Made by a program: the position numbers and the translations under genes. The notes under the pieces were generated by a model, which was not told where the DNA came from, searched no databases, and saw only the letters and a list, made by a program, of their open reading frames with translations. Positions 1 through 20,000 of a stretch of DNA of 20,000 nt are shown here, piece after piece (position 1 is the first letter of the stretch; every line of letters starts with the position of its first letter). This stretch comes from Psammoneis japonica (taxonomy: Eukaryota), in contig QPGO01000047.1 in the NCBI GenBank assembly GCA_008632985.1, forward strand, positions 243,496 through 263,495, given 5' to 3'.

Positions 1-2
1 AT

Positions 3-587
3 AACGGATGGATGGATTTGATGTTTATGTTTACGCACTTTCATTGCCAAAAGCTACCCGACTCGTACGAGGAAACCAAGAGACTTGTTCACGAGTACTT
101 TCCCGTCGTTTACGATACCAAAGTCCTTTCGAGCGAGTACTGCTTGGATTTTAGGGTTCGGAGCGATAGTACAACATTGCTAAAACTGCATGAAACGCTG
201 ATTGTACAAGACATATTGAACTCGAATCCAATCATTGTTTTAGACAATCAAGGAAATGGCGAAGCTCCCCTGTCGACACAAGAGCATGAGGCCGAGTATG
301 ATGCTTTCATGACGGGTGCCATTTTTGCGACCTTGTGCAAGAACATCCTTGATATGAAGGGTGAACGTTTTAGAGCCAATTATCATGTTGATTTAGATGC
401 ATCGGACGAGTCGCAAACGAATGCTAAGGATGACGATGATGACGATGACGACAATTCAGAAGCATCGAACGAATCGGACGTTTCTTTCGTACAAGACGGT
501 TCTTCCAAACGCGGCTTTGGTAGCTTGGTCCATCTGCTGGCGCCGACGCATGACCAAGACGTTAGGCGCTACTTTGGACGCAACAAG
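3..587 (+). CDS. PARN: Poly(A)-specific ribonuclease (PARN/CAF1 DEDD family), penultimate exon; 5' end lies outside the window
   Basis: The frame is open from base 3 (NGWMDLMFMFTHF...LP..YEE.K.LVHEYFP.VYDTK...HEAEYDAFMTG). This matches the PARN/CAF1 motifs HN.LLD, DTK and HEAGYDA.ITG. The exon ends at AAG|GTCAGT. Confidence 0.85.
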
Positions 588-683
588 GTCAGTACAGCAT
601 TACTTGTGTGTTCTCAAACGTTTTACGAAAAGTCACCCGTCTTTAGCTTATCCCTTGTGTATATCCTTTCTTGCCAAATCTAG
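588..683 (+). other. 96-nt GT-AG spliceosomal intron (phase 0) in PARN
   Basis: It starts GTCAGT at 588, has a pyrimidine-rich 3' part and ends TAG at 681-683. Removing it joins GRNK to IFFFNGLYTMDLE in frame, resembling PARN 'NKLFLM...YLNLEG'. Confidence 0.8.
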
Positions 684-1181
684 ATATTCTTCTTCAATGG
701 CTTGTACACAATGGATCTTGAAGAACCTGCAATGGATCCGTTGAAATTGGGCATGTCAAAAGAGTTCACCTATCGTGTTTGCGGCATTGATACGACTGTC
801 TCCACAAGAGACATTACTGGTTGTTTGTCTGGCATTGGAGACTACGAGCTCGTTTGGGTTGATGACACTACATTTATGATTGCTGCAAAGACAGATGAAG
901 GTGAAGCAGGAGAGAGTAGGATGGCACTACGTCGCAATGCGCGGGCCATTTTGGGGGCGCTTCGTGCTCGCTTTTCTGGCCAAACGATAATCACATTGGA
1001 CGAGCACTTGAAACGCGTTGCTGCGCAAGAGGCGGCCGAAGCGAGATTCGGTAAGGGTATTCATAGTCGGTTGGCCGCGTGGGTGTTCAAGACGTGGCAC
1101 ACGGTTTTCGGGAGGAAGAAGCGTCCGATTACCGAGGATGGCGAGAGTCAGCGCCCAAATAAGAGACAACGCGTGTCATAG
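684..1181 (+). CDS. PARN: PARN last exon: RRM-like domain plus basic C-terminal tail (putative NLS)
   Basis: 'STRDITGCLSGIGDYELVWVDDTTFMI' resembles the PARN RRM '[27 protein letters not shown]'. The tail is RKKRP...RPNKRQR, with stop TAG at 1179-1181. Confidence 0.8.
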   Translation: MFFFNGLYTMDLEEPAMDPLKLGMSKEFTYRVCGIDTTVSTRDITGCLSGIGDYELVWVDDTTFMIAAKTDEGEAGESRMALRRNARAILGALRARFSGQTIITLDEHLKRVAAQEAAEARFGKGIHSRLAAWVFKTWHTVFGRKKRPITEDGESQRPNKRQRVS

Positions 1182-1330
1182 GTTGTCTATGAGAAGGTGT
1201 ACATGATACGGGGTTTGGAGATGGAAGCAAAAGGAATGTGGGGGCTAGCGAGGGATGACTAGAACTTTAATAAGTTAGCAGCCGCAAAATCTGCCTAATA
1301 GAACCTTCAGGAGTAGTGCGACCGGTGACA

Positions 1331-1479
1331 TGATCTTTGCATTCGCCTGCTGCGCAACAGAAAGATACAGCATAATCGACGCGGCGCCACAAGAAGGACA
1401 GTGCGACAGGATATCTGATCTTTGCATTCGCCTGCTGCGCCATAGAAAATTACAGCATAATCGACGTGCGTCACAAGAA
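1331..1479. repeat. Two-copy direct repeat (~65-nt unit, 85-nt period) between the convergent 3' ends
   Basis: TGATCTTTGCATTCGCCTGCTGCGC is identical at 1331 and 1416. It is followed in both copies by near-identical AGAAA..TACAGCATAATCGACG..GCG.CACAAGAA. Confidence 0.9.
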
Positions 1480-1618
1480 CAAAAGTGGATCTTCATCTGT
1501 CGGTGCGATTCGTCGAAAACTCGAGTCTGCACCGATATGTGATACTACCGTACAGCTCTCCTGTACAAATACTCCTGCATCTACTGACGAGGTTTCTTTA
1601 CAAGCTTCGTGCTCTTGA

Positions 1619-3271
1619 CTAGTTTCCAATGTATACTCTGATGATATCCGCGATAGAGGCATAGGTACCAATGACGAGAAACACAAGTCCAGCCAAGAAC
1701 AAAAGGTAGCACTTGATCAATTGTGGCCAGTGTAACTTCCAAGAATTCGGTGCAGGAATACAAATCCATTGCGACTCGACCAAATCGTCGTTTCCATAGT
1801 CCAACCGTTTAATCCAGGCGAGCTCCAAAAGGGGTGGGATCAGTAGAGCCGTTGACGAGCCAGCCAGGGCACCTGCTAGCGAGATTAGGGCTTGTACATT
1901 TGGTACAATGACTGCCACCAAGTAGGTCAACATGACCAGCAGTGCTCGCAAGAGTGGGGAGTCTCCCGGCATGGTCATCTTTGGAAGTTGTGTGGCTATT
2001 GAAAAGACGTTCAAAGATGAGGTACGCGAGTTTGCACTTGAGTCAATCTCGTCGCTTTCAGCGTCACCATTCAACTGTCCATAGTGGTGTTCCGATGCTG
2101 GGGTCATCTCTGAGGGCGATACCGGTCTATGCTCTTCAAGTGGCGGTAGCGGCTCAAACGCCGATAGATCATTGTCCTCATCCGTAGTCCCGTCAGGTCG
2201 ATTGAAATAGTGCAGTAGCTTTCTTGATAGCCAAGGCCCGATGAGTTCCAATGCAGGAAAGAGTTGAAGTGGATAGGTCAATAGTACAGACAAGCTCACG
2301 GCCGTATTTGCCACCATGAGCCACCCCGCAATTGAAGGATCGTCTCGGTATGTTTCAACAAGAAAGGCAGTTACACTTCCATTGGTCACCTTTCCAAATA
2401 CCCAAACACAAGTACACGATACAGCGGCCAGAACAAAAGCAACAAACGTCATGGCTGAAACAAACACTTTTTGGAAGTGCTGCGGTTCTTTCATGGCAGA
2501 CTCAACCGGTAAAATTAGGCAAATGCCTTCATAGGAATAGAGAATTGCACATATTGCCAAAGGAGAAGAGGAAAGGTGGATAGTAGGAGTCTCCTCCGGT
2601 CTGTCACTCCATTTCTCTCCAACCACAACACCCAAGCAGCCAAAGCCGAGAAAGAGCAATAGGGTTGCAACAGCAACAACTGGTGCCAATGCTTTGAGAT
2701 TAGGAAGACAGCTCAGCATCATGACTGCCGGAAGAACCATTGTAATGACAAAACCATGGCCGATATTGTTCACCTCGAGGCGTGTCAGAACAGCAAGCAA
2801 GTTTTCTCCGACAAAGGATAAAAACACGGTACAAACAGCCAGTTGCGTGACGCAGATACAAGCTCTAATGTACGCCTGAAATTTTGTTCCATCCGCCCAA
2901 TGTCCGACATCAGGATACGTAATGTTGGTAGATATGGACGTTGCGGTGCCCTCTTCTTCTCCGTCGTTTTGTTCCGGGTTATCGTCCGCTTGGGTTTGTT
3001 CAATGTATCTCTTTATCTTGACGACGGTCCAGCAGTTGTACGACGTCCAGTACGACATGGCAAATATTGCAATGAAGCCTCCCGGTATTCCCAACTGACC
3101 CACAGCCCACGGAAGACTAAGACACCCCGGGCCGAGGTAGCCCTTGAGCAAGTGAAGAAAGGTCTCGGTGCACGTGGTTTGGTGAAGCTCGTCTTCATCG
3201 TTCTCTGCAGAAGTCACGCTGGTTCGTCTGCTTGTTGATAATTCACCCGTGGCGCTATTGTATTCTCTCAT
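1619..3271 (-). CDS. Amino acid/auxin permease (AAAP, Aa_trans; SLC36/PAT-like) transporter
   Basis: Uninterrupted ORF with about 11 hydrophobic segments. It carries the family motifs 'ETFLHLLKGYLGPGCLSLPWA', 'YSYEGICLILPVESAMKEP.HF', 'LTYPLQLFPA' and 'IPN..ALISLAGAL'. The first in-frame ATG is at 3271; the frame is open to ~3358, so an upstream exon or start cannot be excluded. Confidence 0.9.
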   Translation of the reverse strand: MREYNSATGELSTSRRTSVTSAENDEDELHQTTCTETFLHLLKGYLGPGCLSLPWAVGQLGIPGGFIAIFAMSYWTSYNCWTVVKIKRYIEQTQADDNPEQNDGEEEGTATSISTNITYPDVGHWADGTKFQAYIRACICVTQLAVCTVFLSFVGENLLAVLTRLEVNNIGHGFVITMVLPAVMMLSCLPNLKALAPVVAVATLLLFLGFGCLGVVVGEKWSDRPEETPTIHLSSSPLAICAILYSYEGICLILPVESAMKEPQHFQKVFVSAMTFVAFVLAAVSCTCVWVFGKVTNGSVTAFLVETYRDDPSIAGWLMVANTAVSLSVLLTYPLQLFPALELIGPWLSRKLLHYFNRPDGTTDEDNDLSAFEPLPPLEEHRPVSPSEMTPASEHHYGQLNGDAESDEIDSSANSRTSSLNVFSIATQLPKMTMPGDSPLLRALLVMLTYLVAVIVPNVQALISLAGALAGSSTALLIPPLLELAWIKRLDYGNDDLVESQWICIPAPNSWKLHWPQLIKCYLLFLAGLVFLVIGTYASIADIIRVYIGN

Positions 3272-3630
3272 AATATCAATAGAAAGAGGGCGCGCCTCGT
3301 CATTGGGGTCATCAATGGACACAAGGGAAAGGGAGAGAGGAGAGAGAACTAAGGTACATCAGCAACAACACGAGCTTTCCGCAAACCCTGCGGCGGCATC
3401 ATACCGGTACTGTAGCATCTCGCATCGCATCGCAACTGCGCGAGGTCCGGTGGGTTCGGTCCTCGAGCTATACTCTCCATCGTTTTGCTTTGAATGTTTT
3501 TTGACACCTGTGGACAAACGGGACACTGCGTAGCCAGGGTGTACTTCAGTACTCAGTGCTTCGTGGACAAGTGTACCAAGGCGTACCAACGTGTATCAAG
3601 TGCTTCACGAACGATGGGGAGTGAAAAACT

Positions 3631-3691
3631 TGCGCGAAAAATCGCGCACGCTGAGCAGGTAAGTCAGACGGGACTCATTCAGTCACGTCTG
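3631..3691. promoter_or_regulatory. Two short inverted repeats upstream of the transporter and near the left edge of the degenerate block
   Basis: TGCGCGA-AAAA-TCGCGCA (3631-3648) contains an E2F-like TTTCGCGC on the minus strand. CAGACG-G-GACT-CATTC-AGTC-A-CGTCTG spans 3665-3691. Function is not determinable from sequence. Confidence 0.3.
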
Positions 3692-4000
3692 CACGAATTT
3701 CCTCAAAACAACACCCACCATGCACCATGAGAATCGGAGCGGCGTTTTAGACTGTTGCCAATCCTTTCAACAATATCAACACTATCTACTAGTCTTGACT
3801 ATCGTAAAGAATCAACTTATGTTGCTTGTTTGAAGGTTTTCAGCCAATTGTAAGATGAAAACATGGATTTTGTAATTGCACCACGATTGATTCGACACTC
3901 ATCATTTTCGCTCTTCACTGCATGTCGCGATCGAATCGTATTGCGCCTTTGTTTCATTATGTCACTCATTTTCTTTGTAATGGTCATCTTTGTCACTCAT

Positions 4001-5780
4001 GCACAGAGGCTTGTGATGAAGCATCTTGCAGAATGGGAGGTGCGGCACGCGGCACTGTTGTCGTCCAGACAATGTGCAGTGGCTGTCATGATGGTGGACA
4101 CTGCAGAAGGGCACGTGGACATGATGAGTTGGCTCATTGAGAAGGCATTGCTCGCACTGCTGCTGTCAAGCTGGGAAACAACCAATCAACAGCTGATTTT
4201 GTTGGTTGCGCTTCTGTCCTTCTGTGAAAGCTCTTTGACTCCTGCTTCGATGGATCGCTTGTGCGTCCATCTCAACGACTGCGCCGCTGGTCGTGAGCTA
4301 GAACTGCTGACTGTTGCAAGGGACCACGCGTGGAGGGAAGCTGGTCGATGATTTCCTGGCCCCATCTTCGAAAAATGCCAGAGATCTGCACACGAAACTG
4401 GCAGTGTCATTGACTCTTCGCCACTTTCGAATCAGATGGCCCCGGATGGCAGCAGGTCAGCGGAAGAAGGAATGTGTCCTTTTCAGGTGCTGGAGCGGCG
4501 TTCACAAATGCAACTCGCTTGACCTTCATGCAGTTTGAGCCCGTGCTGCTTGAGTTCCTGTCCATTGAACATTGGCCACACTGAGTCGGTCGACAACATT
4601 GATGTCGATGTTGACAGGCTGCTTTGCGTTGCACTGGCTTCGCATCTGCAATCCCCTTGGCCTTGCCTTTTCGATGTAGCATGACTGCTCTACAAGGAAC
4701 CAGGCCTTTTGCTGACTACAAACAAAAGCCTCCAACGCTGCTTCAGTCGTGCTTGAGACCTGCCAGTCTTCATTGTGCAATGTGCTGGTTCGATCTCCCT
4801 GCTGCACTCGGCTTGTCCGACAAATTGACGCAATGAATGGAACTCGAAGCCCGCCCCTTGATTTGGCAAAGGAACTCGTGTGCCTGTGGAAGGAGTCTTT
4901 TAAAAGAACAAGCACTGCTGTCGATGCAAGTGAAGATCTCCCACCTCCGCTTGGCATGGAATCAGTGCGGTTGCAAGCGGTGACAGCAGGGTGCATGCTT
5001 CCCTTTGGCAGAAAATCCCTCCCACCGAAGCTCGCCCCAATGATTCGATCTCTCGTGACAGCCCTGATGAATGAGTCAAGTGGATCTCGACAGGGATGGA
5101 AATTTCTTCATGTGCTGCTCAGATGTTGAAGCTTCCATCTGTTGGAGACCATCTGAGAGTGAGGCACAGAGTGATGGAGAACATCTGCGTCCTTGTGGAA
5201 CATGAGAAATCATCCACTGGCCTTGATGTCCGTGCCAAAGGCTTCATTGTTGCGGCCGCACATGTTCTTGAGTGACAAGTCCATCATCTTCCAAGTCACT
5301 GCACCATGAATGCCCTCCTTCAATTTGGGCGAGAATGAAGCTGTTGAACAGGTGCAGTGCAATCAATCTGCCACAGACGCATTTTGGGGGTTGTGTCGAA
5401 ATCGCCATGACGCAATGCCGATTTGTTCGCTCGCTTGACAGACTTCACAGTCCAATCTCTCGTGCTTGTCACTTTTGGGTGCCCCAGTGTCCGATGCCTT
5501 TCCCTGGCAGCGTTTGAGTCATCATTGTGAACTCAAAAAAGGGTTGAGGATTTCGGTGAAGCATCTCAGAGATGCTCAAAATGACACATGCATGCCAGCG
5601 AGTTGCACCTTGCTGCAATCGATCATCAAATCTGCTGGGATGTGAGTTCGCGAGTTTGTCAAGCTTCTTCTGTCCATTGTGATGTCTCTCATGACTGATT
5701 CATTAGTTGATTGCCCGACAATGGCTGCTTGGAGTTTTGCTGACTTCGGCACGATTGCCCCTTTGGTGCGAAGGGACCAG
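4001..5780 (+). pseudogene. BTAF1: Fragmented BTAF1/Mot1 (TBP-associated Snf2 ATPase) HEAT-region pseudogene
   Basis: 'EWEVRHAALL' (~4030) resembles Mot1 'WEVRHGA'. 'LPPKLAPMIRSLVTALMNE' (~5020) resembles 'LPEKLNPIIKPLMETIKKE'. 'REFVKLLLSIVMSLMTD...AAWSFA' (~5650-5740) resembles 'PYIVLLVVPVLGRMSD...ATQCFA'. It has multiple stops, frameshifts and deletions, and no ATPase domain. Confidence 0.7.
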
Positions 5781-5988
5781 TCATGTGTTGTTGGAGCAAC
5801 GGACGCCAACGATTCCACCACAAAGGTGAGAGGGCAAGAGCCAGCACACACCACCGAGACATTGTTCCTTCACATGAATGCAAACAAAAGGATCCAGCAG
5901 GGGCTGGCTTCGATGATGGAGGAGGAATCCGATGGCAGCATTGTTGTGCATGCCGGCAACCCCACGTTGAGACTTGCACTTTACGACC

Positions 5989-6340
5989 ATGTCGGACGAA
6001 GAGCAAGAACCACACGATGAATTTGGAAATGCACTGGCCCTGATCTAGGTGACGATTCCTCCTCTTCTTCTTCGGATGAACATGATGAGCATCCACAAGC
6101 TCCTGACGATGCGTCCGACGTCTCTGAAGAAGGCTGTGGCGGTGGTGCCATGGTGATCCCCTCGGATCATCAAGAAGAAGCAGAAGCAGAACCTGTGGGT
6201 GTGATTGTCTTGCACAAAGACAAGGAGCATTGTCCTTCTGCCAATGAGGTTATGGCGAAGAAGTGCGGACGGCTGTTTTAGATGAAGATGCCATGGATCT
6301 TGACGTGCCCTTGGTGGAGCCCATTCAGACAAAGAAAAAC
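5989..6340 (+). pseudogene. EFTUD2: 5' fragment of EFTUD2/Snu114 (U5 snRNP 116 kDa GTPase), acidic N-terminal domain only
   Basis: It reads MSDEEQEPHDEFGN/[fs]CTGPDL..acidic..IVLHKDKEHCPSANEV/[fs]YGEEVRTAVLDEDAMDLDVPLVEPIQTKK. The conserved pattern is 'LYDEFGNYIGP.L...VLHEDK.YYP.AEEVYG..V...V.EED.Q.L..PII.P'. There are two frameshifts. Confidence 0.85.
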
Positions 6341-6377
6341 GCCGTTGCTGCTGCTGGTGGTGGTGGAGTTTCGGATG

Positions 6378-6668
6378 TGTCTTGCCATTCGCGAAGCCGT
6401 CTTGGGTTCAAATCATCTGGACATGGCTGCCAGTTGCAACAACATTGCTTTGGTTCTCGAACATCAGGGCAAGCACGAGGAGGCCTTGATGGAGCATCTC
6501 AAGGCACTTGCCATCTTGGGGACAAATCATCCCGACACGGCTTCAAGGCACAACAACATTGGTGTGGTTCTCAAACATCAAGGCAAGTTCGAGGAAGCCT
6601 TGCTCGAGTTTCAAAAGGCACTTGACATTCATCAGGCCGTCTTGGGTCTAAATCATCCACATCAATGA
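6378..6668 (+). pseudogene. Fragment of a kinesin-light-chain/nephrocystin-type TPR repeat gene (about 2 repeats)
   Basis: It reads LAIREAVLGSNHLDMAASCNNIALVLEHQGKHEEALMEHLKALAI and LGTNHPDTASRHNNIGVVLKHQGKFEEALLEFQKAL. The typical pattern is 'HP..A.SYNN.G.V...QGKYEEAL..YQKAL', so Tyr positions are now Cys or His. Confidence 0.85.
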
Positions 6669-7981
6669 TTGCAGCTGCCACAAGGAATCATCAGTGATTG
6701 GTGCGGGACCAAATGATGGCCATGGGTGAAGGAGAAGTGCACAGAACCCCATCTGTGGAGCGCGTCGAAACCGTCTGTTTCAGGCTGGTGCTCCGGTCCA
6801 TGGAGAAGAATTGAGCACTTCTCTTTCACTTCATCATTCAAGAGGGGTCTCTGACAATGCGTCGGCGGAGCGACAAAAAGAGGGAGCTGCTCCAGCTTCA
6901 ATTTGTTTGACCCGCACGATGTGATTGAATCCTTCCTTGCACCCAATGCACCTTGAACTTGATTCCAATGCCGACGGTTGTCTCTTGTCAATGGACTGCG
7001 ACGATGACGGTCGCAGCACTTGTGATGTCGTTGCACACTTTGATGTCGTAATTTTTGTTTTTGCACCACGCCAAGCAGCCCCAGTCCGAGCATGGCGAAT
7101 CCACACATTGATTTACACAAGCAAAGGATCGATGACTGTGAATGTGTGCAGGTGCTGGTTGGTCATGTCAGCTCAGAACGACGGCGCCGAAAGCTGTGGC
7201 AAGAGTGAATTTGATGTGGTTTGATGAGTCATCCTGTTTCTGATGACTGTTTCAGCCTTTCATTGAAGGAGTTCGTCCATGGATTCTTGCGCGACAGATC
7301 TTGTCAAGGTGGCAAAGAATGTTGACAAAAGCGCTGATCTCTTTGTCAGCCTTCACCATGGGAACGTTGCCAGTGCTTTGAACACCTGGATGTCGTGTGA
7401 CCAATTTCGTTCTCTGAGAGAAGTGGCTGCATCTCTGTTTCATCATTTTCTGCTGGTCTCATGAGATGAAATTGTTTCACAACATCTTGGATCAAACGAC
7501 GGGAGTGCTCTTCTTCTCTCCCTCATCTGCACCAACAAGGATGCCGTCGTGCCACAGAAGTGGGCCGACTTGGACCCTTGCTTCATTGTGAACAGCCAAG
7601 AGGTGAAACTTCACAGCTTCACAACATCGGCAAGTTTGCATCTGTTTGCTTTCCCTTGAACTGGAGCGATTTGGTGTCCTTGCAAACTGGTTTGTCGATT
7701 TTAACAATGGCATGTCTCCAGGTGCATGAGGTTGTCTCAATGGTGGCCCACCAGCACAAGGAAGCCGATGAGTGGGAGCTGAAGAAACTTTGGTTGAGAA
7801 AAGGGAAGAATCATGCTTTGACATTTGTTTGACGCCGGCTGCTCCAACCTCTTCGACTCTTCCCGCAGGGCTCCTGTTCTTGCAGAGAAAGGTGAAGAAG
7901 GTGGAGGTCACTCGTGCTGTTAACAACCTCACAGCAGCCGGAAACACTTCTCCAAATGGGAACCAGCTTTCACAACTCAGA

Positions 7982-8442
7982 ATGAATTGAGCGGATCTGT
8001 TGTCTGTGGCATTTGTTGGGACCTTTTCGGGATGCACAAATCCACTTTTACGAAGGGGATCTGCGGAAGCTGAAGCCGACGACGAGCCACGAAATGAAAA
8101 CAAAGCATCTTTCTCCCTCCGACGTTCGCTTGCAGAACTTCAACGAATTCAAGTGATGGCATGGCCCCGTGTGCTGTGCTCAATCAATGGGGTTCTTTGT
8201 TGTGCTTCAAGGTTTTGGCAACATTGGATTTGACGCTTGCCGTGCTGGCATGCAATGCCCTTTCTTTGGTGTTTAGAAGCAGTTTCGGCACCAGCCTTTT
8301 TCTGGGAGAGCGGGTGGACAAACCTTTTCGAGCCTCTGCTGGGGCATCCTTGGTTGTGACGGGTGTTGCCATCTGCATGTCATCAAGAGAGGCAGATCGT
8401 CAATCACCTCGGCCAGATGCAACAAAAGAAGGAGAGCTGTGA
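7982..8442 (+). pseudogene. TMEM234: Near-full-length TMEM234 (UPF0546, DMT-like membrane protein) pseudogene
   Basis: It reads MN*ADLLSVAFVGTFSGCTNPLLRRGS...LNQWGSLLCFKVLATLDLTLAVLACNALSLVF...LGE...AGASLVVTGVAICMSS. TMEM234 reads 'VAALWGGTQPLLKR...[32 protein letters not shown]...LGE...AGMVLTVIGISLC'. There is a premature TGA at codon 3 and a frameshift near 8160. Confidence 0.8.
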
Positions 8443-8899
8443 CGAGAAAGTTGTTTGACTTTCTGCACAAATGGGACTTTTTCCTGTGTGAAGAACACAC
8501 TCACTGTGTGCAGCACCTTGTTTCACAGTGAAGGGTTGAAATGATGCCAGGCACCTCCAGAAAACGCTGGACGATTTCGCTCATGCTATGATGACATGTG
8601 GTTGCAACTTGGCCGAAGAGGGAAGAGTATCATGCAGCTTTCCCGGCTGTTTGTGATTCAGTCTTGACTTGGACCTGCGTGTGCTTCTAAAAACTGGACG
8701 AGTCATCAGGAAACAGCGGTGGTGGCATCGGCTTGGCTCCTGCCTTCTCTTCGGCACGTTGCATGATTGGAGTTTTGAGTTGCGGGTGTCAAACTAGACT
8801 GTGCCCAAGAAGACAGTGCGGGGGAAGTTGCAAAGACTCTCCAGGAAGAAATTGTAGACTTGGTGGAAGAGCGAGCGACTGTGGCAGTGGACTTGTTGA

Positions 8900-9338
8900 A
8901 TCAACCGGCAGCTCTGGACAATGCGAGAATTGCCGAGAAGAGGAGTTTGAGCAAGAGTTGAGAAAGGAAGCACAGGATGCGATGCAAAGGCTCTCATCAA
9001 GTGGAGCCTCCACGTCAACAATGGCGGATTCGGCAGCGCTAGAAGCACACGAGACCAAAATTGTTCGACTGATGGAAGCCAACAAGAAGGCTGAAGAAAA
9101 GCACTCTGGTGAAATGGAAGAAGCTCAGGGGGGAAGTTCAATGGTTGGAGTTGGCAAATGCTGCATTGAAGGTGGATCTGGACCAAGCAGAAGAGACATG
9201 CAAGTGCTTCAGCGCATTTCACAAGAACGAATCGATGCAGAATGGGAAAAGACAGATGATTTGATTCTCACCTTGGAAGATGCCACAGATCAGCTTCGAC
9301 CAGATGAGGATGTCCCCATCAAAAGCGATCGCGAATGA
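8900..9338 (+). pseudogene. Fragment of an unidentified coiled-coil protein gene
   Basis: E/K/Q/A-rich helical stretches (EQELRKEAQDAMQRL...LEAHETKIVRLMEANKKAEEKH; ERIDAEWEKTDDLILTLEDATDQL) lie inside the degenerate block. No family was recognised. Confidence 0.35.
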
Positions 9339-11319
9339 CTCCTGTCCATGCTAGAAACAGCAGTGCTTGCACATTGACAAGTCAAGCTGTTGCTCATGTT
9401 GATCGAGACCACATTGCAGAATCAACTTGAGAGTGTGAAGAATGACAATCTCAGCATGAGCGGGGCTGGACCAATGGATGCCAGGGTCATGGATCATTTG
9501 AGTCGACACAGGCCGAAGGCACTGGACACAGCTCCAGTCAAGACTGCACTGCATCTGCAGCAGCAACATGGGTCACCATCCTCTTTCAAAACAAACCTTG
9601 CCCACCACTTGCAGACACACATTGGAAGACGTCCAGGCAGCCTTTTCCACCAAATCCAAGGCCAAATGCAACACGAAATGATTCATCACCAGGAGTGCCC
9701 TGGGTGGCGGGATGGCAATGATTGGGAACAAGAAGTGCACTGTGCTGCCCCGCCTCATTGGGACACTGTTGGACACAAAGACCCAATCTGGAGGAAGCAG
9801 CCATTGCAGAAACATCCATCATGGAACCCGATTGTCCCGACAATTGGCTTGCAAGCCAAGGTGCCGTCAGGTGGTTTGGACCGGTCAAGGAGGGTGACAG
9901 GCCGCGCTCTTTGGATGAGAGCGGAGCATGCATTGGCTGAATTCAGAGCTTTGAGGATTGGGCTTGTGTTGATCGCTGCTTTGGAAATGGGCGGAACAAC
10001 AGGTGCTTTCAAGTCGTCAAAGAGCCCGCAAGCGAGAACAGTGCAACACTCTCTGGCTTGAAACCTTGACGACACTGCCAAATGGAAGTTTTCTGAGCTG
10101 TTGTCCTCAGCTTTGTCATTGCTGCAAAGCCTCTGTTTTCCCTCAATCTAGCTGGGTGTGACTGCAGCAAGCTCCAATCTCAATGTGTTGTCATTGGCTG
10201 TGCGTGTGTGCAGGAGCATTGATTTCAGCGACTCAGCGAAGCTTCGTTGAACATTCGGTTTGACCGAAACTTGATGAGGTTGTCTTCTTGGAAACCACAT
10301 GGTGCAAACGCAACTAGCATCATGTTGCACTCTTTTCACTTTCGCACACTGGCTTGCACAATCTGATGGCACAAGATGGGAGTGCACCAAAACATTCATC
10401 CCACCCTGCACAGTGTTCCGACTGCCGTGTTGGCCAATGTCAACAGCCACGCAAGCAGCAAAAGTGGAAAGTGGAAAGCAATCTGCTGTTGTTCTTGTCA
10501 TGACGGATGTCATTCGACGTCATGACTGGTTGAATTGTTCCAAACACAAAATGCGCATGATGCATGGACAGGCCAGGAATTGTGTGGATGATGCATCCAG
10601 CAAATGGTTGTGGTTCTTGGCAACAACAAGATTGTGCAAGGACCCATTTGATTGAAAAGATGGAAGCACATGAATGACAAAGTTCTGTGTTCATTCTAGA
10701 TGCCACGGAATGTTTTCCTTCATTGCCATGGAGAGGAGCCGCCATCCTTCCTGGCACACAAACAAAGCCATTCCGTGACACCAATGCTTGCCTTGACATT
10801 TCCATTCTTCCACAATTCATTCTCCACATCCGAAACAAGCAAGGGTTTGGTTCATTGACTGCGGCTGATCTTGAGCAAGTGCAGAGTCGTTGTTTCATTG
10901 AAGCACCAATCATGCCTGGCACACATTTTGTTGCGGAAAACATGAGTCGCGGGGCGGGACCCACTGTTGCTTGAACCTTGGCACTTCAACAAAGACTGAC
11001 TGCCACATCGTTTCAAGAGTCGGGTGGTCGAACCGGGGCACAAAGGGTGCATTGCTACGTTGACAAGGAAGATGAAAAGCAATGTCAGCAAATGCATCTC
11101 GAATGAAAAGAAAAACAGACACGAAATCGACTTACGTTGGGGGTGCGTTCGAATGCAATGCAACACAATGAGTGCACCCCACGGCAGTTTGAAATGCATG
11201 ACAAACTCATGCAATGTTGGCAAGTCTTTGATGTGCACAAAAGCTGTTTTGTGCCGTGAAATGGAGTTGAGAGATGCCCCCATGCATGCTCGATTTCCAG
11301 AGTGCAAAACAAGCAGTCA

Positions 11320-12891
11320 ATGAGTCTGCGGCGACTCATGATCCTTGCAGATCTGCGCACGACACGCCCAGCATTAGACAAAATAAAGACACTGCCCGTC
11401 ACTCCACTGAGCCTGGGCGAGCGTCTCAAAGAGACAGGATGGGCTGCTTTCTCCTCATTCTGCGCAACAACAGCAACAACATCCACAGGATCAATGTCTT
11501 CATCTGGCAACTCCGCGTTCTCCAAATCTTGACCCTCTCCTTCAAGATCAATGCCATGTTGCAACAGCCCATCATCCACAGGTTTTCCAAATCATCTGTT
11601 GGTTCTTCCACATCTGGCAGATCATTCAAGGCATTGTCAGGCGCCTCGTCTGCTGCCAGAACGACTTCCTTGGCAACAGAATTGTCATCAACAGCAACAG
11701 CAGGATCAGCCAATGGCTCCTCTTCACCCTCACCTTCTAGCACAATGTCATGATGCAACAACCTGTCATCCAAAGGATCACCCGAATTGTCCAACGGCAC
11801 TTCCACATCCAAGGCATCATCTGGCTCCTCACGTGCTTCAACGGCTGCATCCACCTGAACAACTTCCTCCTCGGCGACAGGATCAGCAGCAGCAGCAGCA
11901 ACAACAACAGGATCAGCATTGGGTCCCTCAACCACTGCATCTGCCGGAGCAACAATGGCCTCGACCGGTTCAATTGCCGCTGGAGTCTGCACCCATCCAT
12001 GCCAATGATCATGCCTTGGATGCGTTTGACACTCACGAATGCATTGGTCTGGTTTTCGCTCGTGCTCAAGCAGCGCATCAGCCTGTTGCTCATCATTCAG
12101 GATGGGAATGACACGAGTGTAACGTGGTTGTCGAAGAACGCCTTTGGCCGCCCTGCCAGTGGGGATTGGAGGAAGGTCACTGACAAAGACATTCTTGATC
12201 AGTTCTCCGTCCGGCAGCCACTCTAAATGCCGCTGACGACACTGCCGAGCCAGCTTGTCTTGCTCCTCGTCGACTCCACTCAAGGCAAAGTCCAACTTCC
12301 GATCAGATGGCGCTGGAATCTTGGTTGCATGCTTTGGATCTCGAAGAACTTTTGGAGCAGCCATGCCGGTTGGGACGGCACGATCGCGAACACCGTGCAG
12401 GTTCTGCTTCAGTCCAGCGGGTCTCCATCTGACACTCCCACGGCAAAAGCATTTGCGCTTCAAGAACAGCAGCCAAGTGACCACAAACTGAAAAGCATCA
12501 CAGACAAGCAGAAGAACGAATGCACGGTCCATGCAACCAATGCAACCGCGAGAGCAGCCGAAACAGCATCGCATGCTCGATCCCAAAGAAGTGTGGTGAC
12601 GTCGTCAATTTCCACAATTCGGCAGCACAAGAAACAGACAGTGCTGCCAATCAACTTCAGCGAGCAGCACACGAACACCACAGCAAATGCAGCGAGGAGA
12701 GCTGTGCAGACCGCAAGGACAAAGGCCACCAGTTCTTCAATCATGCAGCGAATCTCGTCCACGGCAATGCACGAGAAAATCCACATTTCCCAAAGCAAAC
12801 CGCTGGCGATTCGGCCGTGGTTCTGCTTGCCGTGAAATGCACGTAGCAGGAGATTGACAAAGAGTGTGATCAGTGCAATGCATGCAATCAT
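11320..12891 (-). pseudogene. Frameshifted gene for a hypothetical protein: hydrophobic N-terminus, acidic Ala/Val/Asp/Glu-rich repeat region, basic RRS.RL tail
   Basis: Three consecutive minus-strand ORFs (12460-12891, 11426-12586, 11085-11579) join into one architecture. It has an internal repeat DDRLLHHDIVLEGEG / DDGLLQHGIDLEGEG and the tail LRRSPRLSGVTGSVFILSNAGRVVRRSARI. It is Cys/His-rich and nearly Tyr-free. The 3' end is approximate. Confidence 0.5.
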
Positions 12892-13973
12892 GATGGGGGT
12901 AATGGCATCAACAAAGACAGATTGGTAAGAGTGTGTTTCAATGCAAGCAAAACTTGAAATTGTGTGGTGAGCGAGACGTCGCTCGTTGTTGTGGCTGCGT
13001 CACATTCGTGAATCGTGAATGTGTAGAAACTGTACCGGTGAAGCCCGTAGAAAAGCCGACAGTCAGTCACGCTTTTCAAGTTTTGACGTGATGTTGCGGC
13101 ACGTTTGCATTCGGTTACTCATAGGCTCTAAGGTAGAAACAATCAGAGGCCGGGATTGATGTTGGATGTATCCATGATGAGTATTATCTATTATAGAGCT
13201 TTTCTCTGCAATGAAATTCAGTGTTGCTACGACAGAGCCCATTCTTCTTAGGCCTACTACAAGTACGGTACGCTTCAGACCCAGAAGTAGCATGCAGATT
13301 CTGGTGCTTGCTCCCGTGACACGCCACAAATCAAACTAGTTGAACGATCCTCCCGGTGATACCATGGTAACTGACAACGAATGCATTCTTGATTGAAGAC
13401 GTCGACAGGGTAAGACTGTCCTCGTCGTTGAGGAGTAGCCTCACTGAGTCTGAGCTCGACGGAAACGGTCCCACAATCCAACAAAGTAAGAGCCGAACTA
13501 AGAGTATCGTCGGATTTCTTTTTGCTTTGTTTTGGCAACACGAGTGCCAATACTTTATTCAGAAGTAAGTCACCGAGAAGTACAATTGATCTTTTCAAAC
13601 CATGCCATTCAAATAACTCCATTTTGCACACCATGCGCGACGCTCTGAAGGTCCTAATTCCGGTGTTATTTGAAGGGAGCATTGCCATGCATCATGTGAA
13701 AAAAGTTTCGTAAAAGGGACGACAGAGGATGATTCCAAGATAAGGCACATAGCACCAGATCCTCTTTTCTCCGAAAAGGCATTCTCTCAAAGCCATAGGC
13801 TCATTCCCAAGCGCCATCCAAAAATAATGATAAACAAATGTTGCTTCGCAGAGTGATCTCATGATGGTAAGTATGAACTCGTAGGCAGCCCATTCTTTTG
13901 CTTGATGAAACTCGTTCGTGAGGATCCTTAGCGTCCAGAGCGAATCCACGTGGGCGGCACATAGCCAGGAGAG

Positions 13974-15461
13974 TCAGCGACTGTTGGTGTTAAAAGCGAG
14001 AAACGTCACAAGCAAGTAGCAGAGATGAAGATTTGTGAAAGCCTCCGGCATCCAATTCCTGCTTGCTTCTGGTCCATACCTGTCCCTGGCAGCCAAACTA
14101 TTGAATTGATTCTTGCTTCCGCCATGACTCAGTAGGATCTTGATACAACCGTCCCGTCCAAGCTGACACGCCAGCATTAGCGGTGTAGTCGAAATCTCGT
14201 CATCATTTTGCTCTCGACTTGTCTTTGTATATCTGTTCTTCCTCTCGAAATCGTCATTCAGCCACAACATTCTAAGCAAGTGCGGCCTATCCAAGCAAAT
14301 GGCAAGTCCAACAGGCGAAAGCTTTTTCATTGCGCAAAAGCCATGGACCTCACTTAAGCCCAACTCCTTCAACTCAACCGGCTTGTTCAGCCCAATGTTG
14401 ACACCATGATCATTTCTGTAGACGTCCAAGAGTTGCGAAACCGCAACGGAATCATCGTTTTTGACGGCAAGGTGGAGTGGATAAGGATGTCGGAGATAGT
14501 CATTGACCATGACGACGTCGGCTTTCGCCGTATCTGAAATGCCTCGACAAGCTATATGTGATTCATCAGTTTCAGTGTCTATTGATGCGTCAGACGAAGC
14601 GGTCGAGCCACTGCTACTGTCATCGCTGCTTTCCGAAGGAGAGTCCTCTTCGTGCAGCCGTTGTTCTCGTTGTTGCTGTTTCTTTTCTCTGATAATTTGC
14701 CTCCATCGGTTGCGCAGTTTTGCCATGCCCCAAGGCGCCGATTGGGTATAGCATGATGATACCGATAACTGCTGAATATCTCCCACGGAGGAACAAGTTT
14801 CGTTTTTCGTTTCTAGTGGCTCGGCTACTAACGGAGGTCTGTCTTGGGCTGCAGCTCTTGCTGAGAGAGTCGTAAGTACTGCATTCCCACGCTCTTTCTG
14901 CTCTATCTGCTCTAATCGTTCGTTTTCTTGCTGCTCTTTCTCTTTTCCATGAGCCTGCCACGCCACATCCGACCACTTCCCCTCGTCGCTCGTTTCTCTT
15001 GTCCTATTATGGCTTGCTTTTGTGAAGGATTCACGCACGTCCAACGGAGGAAACAACGACCGAAATTCTGCAAAGGACAAGGCTGTATCCTTTTTATCTT
15101 TAACGTGGCAACCATCAACGGATTGGGTTGTTGATGTACTTTGCTTGTCAATTTTGTCGCGTCGTTTTCGGTTATTTCTGTGATGTTGTTTTCTATTGTT
15201 TTTCTTATTCTCTGTTGCGTTTGTTCCCGCACGGCCGGTATCGCTGTCGTTTGTATTATTTTTTGACGTATCCTTTTCTTTGTCTGCTTTTGTCTTTTCC
15301 TTTCTATTCCTGCGTTTCCTTTGTTGTTTGTTTCTTTTTCTGGTTACTTGTAACGTTGAGCTGCCGCCGCTGTCAAACGATTCGCGTGTGCCTACAGACG
15401 AATGTGCCAAAGGAGGTATGTTTGACGGCAGGAAAACGGGAGCATCAGCTCTCAACGACAT
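13974..15461 (-). CDS. PAM2-motif, basic/low-complexity and ankyrin-repeat protein (possibly 3'-truncated)
   Basis: ATG at 15461 gives MSLRADAPVFLP (PAM2-like), followed by a K/R/N-rich region. Ankyrin-like repeats include YPLHLAVKNDDSVAVSQLL, SPVGLAICLDRPHLLRML and TTPLMLACQLGRDGCIKILLSHG. A probable intron (GTATGG at 14079 to CAG at 13981) is followed by a stop two codons later. TpA content is normal. Confidence 0.7.
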   Translation of the reverse strand: MSLRADAPVFLPSNIPPLAHSSVGTRESFDSGGSSTLQVTRKRNKQQRKRRNRKEKTKADKEKDTSKNNTNDSDTGRAGTNATENKKNNRKQHHRNNRKRRDKIDKQSTSTTQSVDGCHVKDKKDTALSFAEFRSLFPPLDVRESFTKASHNRTRETSDEGKWSDVAWQAHGKEKEQQENERLEQIEQKERGNAVLTTLSARAAAQDRPPLVAEPLETKNETCSSVGDIQQLSVSSCYTQSAPWGMAKLRNRWRQIIREKKQQQREQRLHEEDSPSESSDDSSSGSTASSDASIDTETDESHIACRGISDTAKADVVMVNDYLRHPYPLHLAVKNDDSVAVSQLLDVYRNDHGVNIGLNKPVELKELGLSEVHGFCAMKKLSPVGLAICLDRPHLLRMLWLNDDFERKNRYTKTSREQNDDEISTTPLMLACQLGRDGCIKILLSHGGSKNQFNSLAARDRYGPEASRNWMPEAFTNLHLCYLLVTFLAFNTNSR

Positions 15462-15682
15462 GCTACTACGAAGAAGCAAGAAGGATGTCACTGTGTTGCA
15501 TGGATGGATGTTATGTATGAGGAGGCGTTGCAACGTTGCAAAGTTAATGACTCTGATTTCCGGCACCACGCGCTATGCTCTTGTTACTTTGTTTCTTTGT
15601 GTCTCTCACCAGTCACGAGTCAACAACCGAGTCTGATTCACGGATGACGCTTCCGGTCATGGATCTCTTCTTCCGGAAGAAA

Positions 15683-15893
15683 TGTCCGTTGAGTCTTCTA
15701 GCGATAGTAATCGGAGTGACACACGACCGTTAGGTCATAATGTCATCTCCAATCCCTCGTGAGATCTTCTCATAATTCGTATCTTTAGCGTATCTTATTG
15801 TCCCAAAACTACTTCTTATCATCCTCTGTTGTATTGTACAACCTCAAGAGAGTCCTGAACTCTCCATCCTACACAGTGTATTGTTGTATCCCA
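15683..15893 (+). repeat. Putative 5' LTR (start uncertain)
   Basis: It ends ...TATCCCA three bases before the PBS. The candidate TG start at 15683 follows a 14-bp palindrome. It cannot be confirmed without the 3' LTR. Confidence 0.45.
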
Positions 15894-15896
15894 AGT

Positions 15897-15908
15897 GGTT
15901 ATGAGCCC
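15897..15908 (+). promoter_or_regulatory. Primer binding site, copia half-tRNA-iMet type
   Basis: GGTTATGAGCCC differs by one base from the GGTTATGGGCCC PBS of Drosophila copia-type elements, and sits directly after the CA-ending segment. Confidence 0.65.
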
Positions 15909-15978
15909 AATCCACACACCGGCATCAACTCGCAACGGAGTTGCTGCCACTCGTTCGTCTCGTTACAGACAACATCCC

Positions 15979-16065
15979 ATCCAACGGCGATCTTCTATGT
16001 CGCAATCCAACGGCGATCATCTGTGTCGCAATCCCTGCCTGCTAATCGATCCTCTATGTCGAATC
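15979..16065 (+). repeat. 26-nt tandem repeat in the retrotransposon 5' leader (2 copies plus a partial third)
   Basis: ATCCAACGGCGATCTTCTATGTCGCA (15979-16004), ATCCAACGGCGATCATCTGTGTCGCA (16005-16030) and a partial CGATCCTCTATGTCG (~16047-16061). Confidence 0.85.
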
Positions 16066-16075
16066 ATCCACAACC

Positions 16076-19000
16076 ATGTCCATGGATCCTGACACCGTCA
16101 AGATGTTTGCTGAAGCCTTCGCCAAGATGCAAACCTCGACCAACCCTCCTGCGATCCCCACGCCGCTTCGCGGCGGCACCCACCACTCTCATGGAGTGCA
16201 TCTGGGTGGTTCAGCTCTGAACAACAAGTGTGAGCAGACCGACACCCGCACCTGCCGTTTTGCCTCGCAACGTCGCCATCCGAAAGCTGTCGACTCTGTC
16301 GAGCGATCTCTCCGAGATCAACTCGCTTCGGCAACCACATCCAAGTTCAACGGCCAGATTGAGTTGTCCAACGGTTCCAGCACTGAACTGGACAAAGACC
16401 ACTTCGTCAAGACCATCCAGGACTTGATCGAGTTGCATGGACAAGAAACTTTCTACCATCTCAAGAAAGTCGACGGCAAGGTCGTGCACCTTTTTGATCA
16501 TCTTCACGCCTTCACTGTCAAAGACCTTGAGAAGGAATGTGAGACCCGTGTGGCGGCTGCAGGTGACGAAGGCTACGATCAGCATGAAATCGATGACATC
16601 GGCTCATCACAACTCATCGTCAAGTCGCGCATCACCGAAACCTTCCGTGAAAAGATTGAAACCAAGTTTGGTCACTTGAAGAACTGCAAGGATCTTCCGG
16701 GGTCTGTCTCATTTATGATGGCTCTGGATGCCTGCAACGCCAGTGCTCTGGTTGACGTCAAGGCCGCCAAGGAAAAGTTGAATGACTTAACTCTGGACAC
16801 CTGCCCTGGTGAGGACTGCGCCGAGCTTGCAACCGAAGCTCTGCGCCTGCTCAAGATCATGCAGACGGACTGTGCGCCACCAGTTGAAACTGGGTCCACT
16901 GTTTTATCTAAGGTGTCAAAGACATCCTCCGAGTTTTTCAATCGTCAAGTTTTTGCCAAGCTCGACTCCGTCAAGCGCTTGGAGCGCAAATGTCGCTTGC
17001 GTGACCCGGCAGAAGTCCCCAAGGATGCCGACCACGCGGATCTTGGACCTGTTGGCCTCATTGGCTGGATCACCAAGACCCATGGCGAGCTCATTGGCGA
17101 TGAAGATTGGCCTGCCTCAGCAGCCAAGCTCCCGGAATCCAACCTCACCAAGGACAACTCGGAAAAGCAATGCTGCGGCTGTGGCAAGGTTGGGCACACC
17201 AAACGCACGTGTCCCACCTGCAAGGAGCAATGCAAGAAGGACAAAAAGGGCACGGCGGACAAGTCCAAGGATGACCCTCCGGATGTCCGGAAGACTGACC
17301 CTTCCAAGAAACCACCCAAGCCGGCCTGGCGTTTCGTTCACAAAGGTGCCACTGTCACCGACGAGAAAGGCACGACCTGGCACTGGTGCGACAAGTGTGT
17401 GAACAAGGAAACGGGCAAGAAGGGCATGCATCAAGGCCACTCCTCCGCTCAACACACCGGGAAACCGTCTGTCAAAACCGAAACCACCGCTGCGGCAAAT
17501 TTATCTGCTGTGTCGGACCCCTCTTCGGGCATTCCTTTTGGTCCTCCCGAGCAGACGACGTCTCCGCCTACAGACAAACCCTCTGACCCTAACGAGCTGG
17601 TTTGTTGCGGCATGTGGTGTGCACCTGTGGACGACTCTTTGAGTTCGACTCCAGTGACTACGACCGTCACGTTCACTCCTGCTCCATCGGCCGAGAGGGA
17701 GACTGCCGTGGCCAAACCCGCTCCCATCTTGGTTGAAACGGTTGACCCCGAAGACGCTGACGATTGCTCCGAGCACTCCGACGCTCACTCCTCTTTTGAC
17801 TCCCTGCCGTCAGCTGTCGAGCCATTTCCGGCCTATGCCATGCATGAGATTCAAAATCCGGACGTGTTTTATGACACGATCGCAACTCACGTGGAAGGTC
17901 TGTCCGACGACGTGTTAGACGATCTCGTTTCCGGGGCAAGCATCCCACCTTTCGAAGACAGCTACGAGCACTTACCTCCAAGCACCCAGCATCGCGGTTT
18001 CGAATTTTACGATCCCGAACCCCAAGATGTTGATTGTGGCGTCGAGGAGGCAACGCCGAGCTCTCGTCTTGAGCTCTTCTGGAACTTCTTGAAGCTCCGA
18101 GTTTTCTGGCTGTTTGCCATGTTCTGGGAAACGGTGCTGCACATTTGCTGTGCGCCGATTCCTGTCTTACCTCGTCGCATGCGCGGTAAGGCATTCATCC
18201 CAACCATTCACGGTTTCCCCTCTACCTGGATGGTGCTGACTGGAGCCATCATGGTCTGGGCGTCTGTTTTCAATGGTCAGCTTCCCACGCATCCATTCTC
18301 CAATGTCCCCTCTCGCTTCTCCAAAGCCAGCTCTCAGGTCTGCTCGATCATTGAAGAACTGGACTATGAGACAGTGTTAGATCCGGGCAGTTTGGTGGAA
18401 TGCAACAAGATCAAGGCGCGACAAGTGCTTGCCGAATTTGTGGAGCGCGATCCGGACCATTGTCTGAGCAAGAAATTCACGCAGCTCTGGGAGAACGACG
18501 TGTGCTCTTCCCCAGGCCGCTGTGTCCCTCCAGCTCTAGAAGACCCCGAGTCCCACTTCGACACCTGTGATTCAGAGGAAGCCCTCGGCCCGCTCCCGAC
18601 CGAGCCGAGCCACTACTTTGACACGGTTGAGGAGCTCTCTCCGGACTATTTTCGTTTCGACGAGCTGTCCACCAAGTTTGGTTTCGTGGACACCACTCCA
18701 TGGCAAGACCCTGTGAAGCTTCTCCAGGCAGCTGCTGACGGAACCGAAGCCTGTCCCACTCATACCTCTGTGCAGGTGTTGACAGGCCAACGTTCTTTAG
18801 CACAACTCGCCGCCGACCCGCAAGCTTTGCTGAGCCTGGCACATGAGCGCCACACCGTCACATGCGATGCTGGCGCATCCTTGGCCATCACTTGCGATGA
18901 AAACGACTTTGTCGGACCTCTGACGATCCCTGATGGCCCATTGAAGCTTGGGGGTCTAGCAAATGGCTTAACCATCGCCGGCATCGGACCCGTCTCCTGG

Positions 19001-19999: not shown

Positions 20000-20000
20000 T

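Follow-up and report, generated by a model that had tools for sequence, protein, structure and literature searches.

What has removed TpA from two long blocks of a diatom contig, and do the few sites left in them reveal how the responsible process chooses its targets? The question is raised by a window of 20,000 nucleotides from Psammoneis japonica (GenBank assembly GCA_008632985.1, contig QPGO01000047.1, positions 243,496 to 263,495 of the forward strand), which is the whole stretch of DNA analyzed here and whose own numbering is used below. Block 1 (3980..13020) is a mosaic of degenerate gene fragments, block 2 (16056..20000) is the coding frame of a copia-type retrotransposon, and the remainder (1..3979 and 13021..16055) constitutes the flanks. 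The explanation that we favor, on balance, is TpA-specific hypermutation at a rate that depends on the neighboring bases, with the adenine of 5'-TAY-3' (R, purine; Y, pyrimidine) as the preferred target and with a bias toward the antisense strand in copia copies.

The depletion is deep and sharply bounded. When calculated per kilobase, the observed/expected ratio (o/e) of TpA is 0.03-0.11 in 4001-13000, 0.14-0.27 in 16001-20000, and 0.52-0.80 in the rest of the window, and in the TpA-poor stretches the ratios of TG and CA reach 1.4-1.8. Overall, TpA o/e is 0.07 in block 1, 0.18 in block 2, and 0.62 in the flanks, with TG at 1.60 and CA at 1.56 in block 1 against 1.11 and 1.22 in the flanks. 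There is no loss of AA (o/e 1.18 in block 1 against 1.09 in the flanks), and AT and AC are likewise unaltered, which rules out processes that change A to G in general, among them ADAR-type editing and mutagenesis by a WA-motif polymerase. The borders fall at 3978/4299, 12926/13024, and 16055/16454: dense TpA is last seen at 3978, returns at 13024, and ends again at 16055, and block 1 is slightly wider than the 4290-12900 from which an earlier reading of the sequence had drawn its survivors. Hypermutation-like loss is limited to the two blocks, and the adjoining genes have normal TpA density.

The depletion is mutational and not compositional, as can be seen from the protein encoded by block 2 (P0001). 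It contains 0.99% Tyr, 3.19% Cys, and 4.78% His; the 15 relatives among those listed contain approximately 3% Tyr (2.7-3.9%), 1.3-2.1% Cys, and 2.6-3.7% His. At the 29 alignment columns where at least half of the relatives carry Tyr, P0001 has His in 11, Cys in 8, Tyr in 4, Phe in 4, Leu in 1, and Ser in 1, so that 19 of 29 conserved tyrosines, including invariant or near-invariant ones, now read His or Cys. At columns 1002 and 1049, for instance, an invariant Tyr is already His. His and Cys are the products expected of TAY→CAY and TAY→TGY. A TPR fragment in block 1 has GKHEEA in place of the GKY(K/E)E of kinesin light chains. Stop codons are affected as well: TAA and TAG together fall from approximately 17-18 per kb to 3 (3.1) per kb in block 1. 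Since TA→TG and TA→CA remove TAA and TAG and cannot create a stop, long spurious open reading frames (ORFs) arise in all six frames; 34 ORFs of at least 100 amino acids overlap 3800-13200, and an open frame in such DNA is no evidence of a gene.

The TpA sites that survive in block 1 are strongly skewed in context. Sites were grouped by their tetramer into RTAY, mixed (YTAY and RTAR), and YTAR. The 37 that are left in block 1 comprise 19 YTAR, 17 mixed (8 RTAR and 9 YTAY), and a single RTAY, against 99 RTAY, 158 mixed, and 44 YTAR among the 301 TpA of the flanks (chi-square test against flank proportions, p = 2e-10; RTAY against YTAR, Fisher p = 3e-8). The sequence-only reading had tallied the survivors of 4290-12900 by hand and was right to within one site: we count 35, namely 19 YTAR, 15 mixed (9 YTAY and 6 RTAR), and one RTAY (GTAT at 8628), and all nine CTAG positions that it listed are correct. 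It had measured the skew against a naive 1:2:1 expectation and conceded that its context rule would fall if, after normalization, the three classes proved to be lost at equal rates. Normalization has the opposite effect, the skew growing from p = 1e-4 against 1:2:1 to p = 4e-11 against the flanks, because the best-surviving class, YTAR, is the rarest class there. A second baseline, the ORFs of 37 unmutated relatives (1927 RTAY, 3278 mixed, and 1142 YTAR), gives p = 9e-8.

With flank densities scaled to the length of block 1, survival is 1 of ~128 (0.8%) for RTAY, 17 of ~204 (8.3%) for mixed sites, and 19 of ~57 (34%) for YTAR. Roughly two-thirds of YTAR sites are therefore lost as well, and the original proposal that YTAR offers no target was too strong. 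Expressed as minus-log survival for RTAY, mixed, and YTAR, the values are 4.85, 2.48, and 1.09 in block 1; 3.05, 1.03, and 0.74 in block 2; and ~4, 1.6, and 0 in L044, an environmental copia contig introduced below. The effect of a neighbor amounts to ~4-5-fold in rate per flank, and the contrast between classes is amplified among the survivors because the dose is near saturation. By the base 5' of the T, survival in block 1 is 0.019 for A, 0.061 for G, 0.161 for T, and 0.184 for C. Nearest-neighbor stacking energies of the flanking steps were considered as an explanation and dropped; their order does not follow A>G>T~C. Four TpA-poor loci without strong CpG depletion (L076, L031, L030, and L072; TpA o/e 0.36-0.39) show no class skew.

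The most resistant tetramer in block 1 is CTAG, with 9 copies against 11.6 expected (~80%; Fisher p = 0.038 against other YTAR), and in L044 it is not special (1 of 16 YTAR). Dcm-like deamination of CCWGG was considered as a source of CTAG and set aside, as only one of the nine occurs as CTAGG or CCTAG. The context extends one base further out: next to the pyrimidine half-sites of block 1 survivors, the outer base is T in 29 of 55 cases (62 of 246 in the flanks) and C in 3 of 55 (54 of 246 in the flanks; p = 1e-4). Agreement is weak in block 2 (T in 19 of 42, p = 0.04) and lacking in L044 (p = 0.3). The most resistant context seems to be T-Y-TA-R-A, as in TCTAGA or TTTAAA.

The same ranking is found in copia copies. 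In block 2, the survivors are 23 YTAY, 9 YTAR, 2 RTAY, and 1 RTAR (2/24/9 by class; p = 0.002), which bears out the earlier statement that a pyrimidine precedes 32 of 35 TpA there. L044, an environmental contig of 1889 bases covering a copia integrase region, displays the same TpA loss and the same recoding of Tyr to Cys and His (TpA o/e 0.19; Tyr 1.27%, Cys 2.7%, and His 4.3%; CpG o/e 0.31). Its 25 TpA comprise 16 YTAR, 9 YTAY, and neither RTAR nor RTAY (p = 7e-12), so that all 25 follow a pyrimidine, and it has no DNA similarity to the window. Loss in the order RTAY > mixed > YTAR thus holds in three sequences from at least two organisms. L044 is the only hypermutated locus among 80 metagenomic copia loci, none of which comes within 66% DNA identity of the window. 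No excess of TA↔TG/CA differences was seen in ten pairs of related metagenomic copia loci, and a scan of viral contigs gave 69 pattern matches, none of them confirmed. Several metagenomic copia loci (L025, L016, L023, L009, and others) combine a CpG o/e of 0.06-0.35 with normal TpA; this is ordinary methylation-type decay, and it indicates that the CpG-decay and TpA signatures are separable.

It might be objected that the remaining TpA are not survivors at all, having been re-created later by C→T at CpA and TpG or kept by selection. Block 1 does show CpG decay (o/e 0.62) and hence age, and with ~1785 TG and CA precursors, a divergence of 1-2% could remake tens of TpA; in block 2, Tyr codons account for 12 of the 35 remaining sites. 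Yet the block 1 precursors of the two extreme classes are equally common, 425 for RTAY (RCAY and RTGY) and 416 for YTAR (YCAR and YTGR), and the survivors stand at 1:19, so that re-creation would still need context-dependent removal. Selection, for its part, has no frame to act on in the pseudogene mosaic of block 1, and silent TTA and CTA codons are still present in block 2. We regard this objection as improbable.

A more difficult issue is which neighbor and which strand are read. A purine before T is a pyrimidine after A on the other strand, and strand-symmetric survivors therefore cannot separate 5'-TAY from 5'-RTA. The sequence-only reading had taken its survivors as evidence for 5'-TAY, for which they carry no weight over 5'-RTA; the preference itself comes out ahead once both copia copies are fitted. 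There, survivors on the sense strand are unequally divided between the two mixed tetramers, with 23 YTAY against 1 RTAR in block 2 (P = 0.013, GC-matched baseline) and 9 against 0 in L044 (P = 0.037), where the baseline ratio is 2.3-3.2 to 1. At non-Tyr sites of the two copies combined, the count is 13 against 1 (P = 0.007). We fitted each model to survivor classes and codon outcomes by likelihood on a grid and compared the fits by the Akaike information criterion (AIC). A TAY-only model with unequal strands gives AIC values of 27.1 for block 2 and 21.4 for L044, against 40.6 and 27.6 for RTA only with unequal strands, 38.0 and 26.4 for both flanks with equal strands, and 51.3 and 74.8 without context. 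The lead of the TAY model over its rivals corresponds to a delta AIC of 6 to 13. In its best fit to block 2 (log-likelihood, -10.57), the doses are 0.45 on the sense strand and 2.55 on the antisense strand, with a +1 purine penalty of 0.18, and on this model the antisense strand of the copia copies would have been hit ~5 times more. Because these crude fits agree in two independent elements, we place TAY first, at about an even chance of being the correct assignment, a rule involving both flanks of the duplex second, and RTA a distant third.

The rule placed second holds that both neighbors act on the TpA duplex step, or that positions -2 and +1 of the edited strand both count (giving an R-T-A-Y palindrome), with the two adenines hit about equally. 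It would point to an enzyme that recognizes duplex DNA, or to an alternating purine-pyrimidine step that opens locally, and not to a TadA-like single-strand motif. The symmetry of RTAR and YTAY among block 1 survivors speaks for it, a symmetric two-flank fit equals the best for block 1 (log-likelihood, -7.34; penalties, 0.34 and 0.66), and the mixed-site products in block 1 are near even, with an excess over the flanks of +13.3 per kb against +10.2. The near-even outcome of pyrimidine-preceded Tyr codons, detailed below, also fits. What it cannot produce is YTAY far above RTAR on the sense strand, as these are the same duplex site, and it accordingly falls behind in both copia fits. Part of that asymmetry could be accounted for by selection to keep Tyr codons, but the invariant tyrosines that have already become His at the two P0001 columns speak against this. 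We consider such a duplex rule possible, if clearly less probable than a TAY preference.

If the decisive base were instead a purine at position -2 from the edited A (5'-R-T-A), the sense strand of copia would be the one edited, as RNA or as nontemplate DNA. This explains block 1 as well as TAY does. In block 2, moreover, all 15 surviving NTA codons are TTA or CTA, though TA→TG would be silent there, and three Leu codons of the form YTA|Y have become Ser or Pro via the CA route. The codon outcomes go the other way: Cys should exceed His at purine-preceded Tyr codons and Met should exceed Thr at Ile ATA|R codons, and the copia copies show 3 Cys and 6 His at the former and 0 Met and 2 Thr at the latter. 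Under a strict column filter, the probability of at least 6 Cys in 10 on an RTA model is 0.004, and the block 1 product classes disagree with RTA at z = 3.4. Its AIC values count against it as well, and we regard an RTA rule as improbable. Least probable of all, in our assessment, is that the altered base is the thymine, for example through a hydroxylase or another T modification in 5'-R-T-A that mispairs with G, or that a WA-motif error-prone polymerase was at work. A T→C change at R-T*-A and an A→G change at T-A*-Y on the opposite strand are one and the same event. Had a polymerase-eta-like WA mutator acted, AA should be depleted too, and it is not. Nothing pointing to a thymine-modifying system came to light, although there was no genome in which to look for one.

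Several observations weigh against the TAY preference or limit what can be built on it. The block 1 fits of TAY and RTA are identical (AIC, 19.5 each). TAY predicts RTAR→RCAR and YTAY→YTGY, and RTA predicts the opposite products, RTGR and YCAY; the excess of RCAR+YTGY minus RTGR+YCAY over the flanks in block 1 is 3.1 +/- 4.8 per kb, where +/-13 is predicted, corresponding to z = -2.1 for TAY and 0.7 for an equal split. CpG decay in block 1 also feeds TG and CA, on both sides of this comparison. Shifts of product trinucleotides and tetramers, relative to the flanks or to 14 GC-matched relatives, are no larger than the scatter between loci, which leaves the block 1 class difference as the only usable product comparison. 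Pyrimidine-preceded Tyr codons have become Cys in 6 cases and His in 7, or Cys in 6 and His in 4 when three columns with His common in relatives are dropped, an outcome close to even and compatible with TAY only given a genuine antisense bias. The fits are crude, with baselines taken from relatives that are 35-60% identical and with selection outside the models, and the product events in block 2 are few (9, 10, and 1). Survival of pyrimidine-preceded TpA in block 2 varies with the codon frame, at ~52% in frame 0, 66% in frame 1, and 23% in frame 2 (GC-matched baseline), a pattern that fits no model. The data are, furthermore, blind to thymine versus adenine as the altered base, and mutated sites were deduced from composition and from the proteins of relatives and not from parent-copy DNA. 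Three public sequencing runs of one sample contain the window, with no RNA run among those listed. The nearest approach to a parent-copy comparison comes from one of them (X1), against whose contigs the window was compared at 80% likeness, yielding 1729 related contigs. Among 40 of the 2408 differing places, 25 fall in the blocks and 6 of these 25 are TA/TG or TA/CA: 3 of TAY type, 1 of RTA type, and 2 at RTAY, with the direction assumed and the number too small to decide.

Taken together, the TAY preference would be embedded in the following scenario. The two stretches have passed through a TpA-specific A:T→G:C hypermutation (TA→TG or TA→CA) with the same signature as that in integrated viral DNA of Bigelowiella natans. 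A purine 5' of the T or, seen from the opposite strand, a pyrimidine 3' of the A speeds the loss ~4-5-fold per side. The near-saturating dose in block 1 therefore erased RTAY, left ~8% of mixed sites and about a third of YTAR, and hardly altered CTAG, with the base one further out mattering too and T-Y-TA-R-A the most resistant. Of all this, the loss of TpA by mutation, the ranking of the tetramers, and its return in three sequences are shown, and adenine as the altered base, the +1 position, the strand bias, and any enzyme are inferred. The most economical reading is that adenine in 5'-T-A-Y-3' is preferred on whichever strand bears that motif. Both strands of the 9-kb mosaic would have been hit alike, and the antisense strand of the two copia copies at a dose ~5 times higher. 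A TadA/ADAT-fold enzyme as the agent, as put forward in the sequence-only reading, is speculation. One step further, and doubtful as a whole, diatoms might possess a defense resembling repeat-induced point mutation (RIP) with the opposite chemistry. In such a scheme, a TadA-like DNA adenine deaminase reading 5'-T-A-Y, with +2 G most sensitive, would wipe TpA from silenced DNA in situ and also strike the minus-strand cDNA of long terminal repeat (LTR) retrotransposons during reverse transcription. It would amount to an adenine-directed analog of APOBEC3, shared by two or more branches of SAR (stramenopiles, alveolates, and Rhizaria), to which CTAG and T-Y-TA-R-A would be immune.

The features of the window are collected in Table 1. 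Pfam matches in block 1 are scraps of unrelated genes only, and the block 2 frame bears a GAG-pre-integrase domain. The best copia relatives of P0001 are 35-60% identical, the named ones coming only from the diatom Fragilaria crotonensis, and all named relatives of the amino acid transporter in the left flank are from diatoms, at no more than 57% identity, which points to a diatom without close relatives in the protein collection.

Table 1. Coordinates of the blocks, flanks, gene fragments, and surviving sites in the window
Feature	Position	Strand	Remarks
Block 1	3980..13020		9-kb TpA-depleted mosaic of degenerate gene fragments; 37 TpA left
EFTUD2_N fragment	6021-6622		Pfam match in block 1
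TPR_12 fragment	6282-6665		Pfam match in block 1
TMEM234 fragment	7991-8439		Pfam match in block 1
Sedlin_N fragment	9576-9818	-	Pfam match in block 1
Nine surviving CTAG	4298..11741		T at 4299, 6046, 8795, 9040, 9352, 10149, 10315, 10697, 11738
GTAT, sole surviving RTAY of block 1	8627..8630 (T at 8628)		1 left of ~128 expected
Block 2, copia-type polyprotein ORF	16056..20000 (ORF 16046-19999, open at window end)	+	35 TpA left
Left flank	1..3979		Normal TpA; CAF1 nuclease and amino acid transporter genes; baseline
Right flank (spacer)	13021..16055		Normal TpA; ankyrin-repeat ORF on - strand; baseline

CpG o/e is 0.62 in block 1, 0.91 in block 2, and 1.01 in the flanks. Given this loss, block 1 looks older or methylated, and its CpG decay implies that part of its TG and CA excess does not stem from TpA loss. 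Internal repeats usable for comparing copies were not found in the window; two tandem copies of 114 bases, 79% alike, at 6396-6623 are successive TPR units within the TPR fragment. The depletion of block 2 begins within ~20 bases of the start of the copia frame, with a TpA o/e of 0.79 in 15700-16055 and 0.05 in 16056-16455, and the depth of X1 contigs is already high from the bin 15342-16008, upstream of the frame. If the piece upstream of the frame is an LTR, it escaped hypermutation. Contig depth in the same run is close to single copy and flank-like in 4003-10672 (95-320), and multicopy in 10673-13340 (695-1425); the copia family reaches ~15-25 times the single-copy depth. One X1 contig skips 5661-7169, the segment with the EFTUD2 and TPR scraps, which may be an insertion in one haplotype only. 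X1 contigs are 85-95% identical to the flank genes with small indels, for example 15 differences in 130 bases at 17-146, which suggests strongly diverged haplotypes or co-occurring strains in the sample.

Hypermutation of this kind has been described before; what is new is the organism, how deep the depletion goes, and the rule on context. To what was known we add a quantitative rule (~4-5-fold per flank, CTAG immune, and an effect one base further out) and a possible strand polarity in retroelements. Since both a diatom and an environmental contig carry the signature, it is not the peculiarity of one alga. The preference for RTAY over YTAR constrains the enzyme and provides a biochemical fingerprint for accepting or rejecting candidate deaminases. 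On the practical side, gene finders will call false ORFs in hypermutated DNA as TAA and TAG vanish, and the recoding of Tyr to Cys and His makes proteins of transposons and viruses escape homology searches.

Among known systems, RIP in ascomycete fungi converts CpA to TpA, enriches AT, and creates stop codons. The process described here resembles it in that transitions at a specific dinucleotide pile up regionally in DNA that is repeated or foreign, and neighboring genes are spared. Unlike RIP, it destroys TpA, raises GC, and creates no stop in any frame; instead of TpA excess and lowered GC, we observe TpA depletion and a block GC of 0.47-0.59. Polymerase-eta-like WA mutagenesis yields A→G at TA and AA, plus transversions, a pattern from which the undepleted AA departs. 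APOBEC3 deaminates cytosine in retroviral minus-strand cDNA. If the antisense bias in copia is real, the likeness lies in the polarity, with hits on the minus strand that show up as changes in the plus strand; the differences are that adenine and not cytosine would be affected and that block 1 is unbiased and no retroelement. The TpA o/e across block 2 (0.14, 0.20, 0.27, and 0.15 per kb) also shows no 5'-to-3' gradient, unlike APOBEC3.

The natural substrate of TadA is a tRNA loop, unlike the kilobases of chromosomal DNA affected here. As far as the cited account goes, RNA targets of Escherichia coli TadA and of the adenine base editor (ABE) ABEmax center on UACG(A) (PMC8052359). In common with TadA and ABE is the T/U 5' of the edited A; a pyrimidine at +1 is favored by the two copia fits, but block 1 products are near even. 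Under the TAY reading only, G at +2 would be most sensitive, as in TadA (its mirror, C, being found in 3 of 55 survivors). Unlike TadA with its C at +1, T at +1 would here be at least as sensitive as C (ATA 0.019 and GTA 0.061). ADAT2/ADAT3 (Tad2/Tad3) similarly has a strong need for U at -1. In fungal mRNA editing during the sexual stage of Fusarium and Neurospora, ADAT2/3 is described as preferring a purine (A or G) at both +1 and +3, and sites in hairpin loops (PMC11156358). A preferred purine at +1 is the opposite of TAY, the editing acts on RNA, and YTAR is the most resistant class in all three of our sequences. ADAR hyperediting of double-stranded RNA has, according to the same account, only a weak neighbor preference, with G underrepresented at -1 and slightly overrepresented at +1 (PMC11156358), and differs from a loss that is exclusive to TpA, with AA at 1.18 and CA raised.

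The closest parallel is found in the chlorarachniophyte B. natans; our literature search returned no report of TpA hypermutation in diatoms, and the B. natans preprint was the sole paper found. In two viral insertions of that alga, 230 of 231 de novo mutations in mutation-accumulation lines were A→G or T→C, all at TpA, and clusters depleted in TpA and enriched in CpA and TpG occur elsewhere in its genome (Mettrop et al., bioRxiv 10.64898/2026.01.13.699255). The study puts forward an ADAT2-like deaminase, and its main text treats the effect at the dinucleotide level only, giving no wider sequence context (bioRxiv 10.64898/2026.01.13.699255). As far as that text describes the system, both cases share the conversion of TpA into TpG and CpA on either strand, blocks with sharp borders, and an untouched flanking genome. 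The A:T→G:C change at TpA appears here, judging from sequence, in the lowered TA of both blocks, the raised TG and CA, and the 19 of 29 recoded tyrosines. Targets in B. natans are reported as integrated nucleocytoplasmic large DNA virus (NCLDV), virophage, and transposable element-like DNA, and in both systems they include reverse-transcriptase-bearing and unannotated sequences, here a copia element and a pseudogene mosaic. The host here is a diatom, and thus a stramenopile and not a chlorarachniophyte, and the depletion is deeper, with an o/e of 0.03-0.1 against the 0.45 given for the NCLDV region of B. natans.

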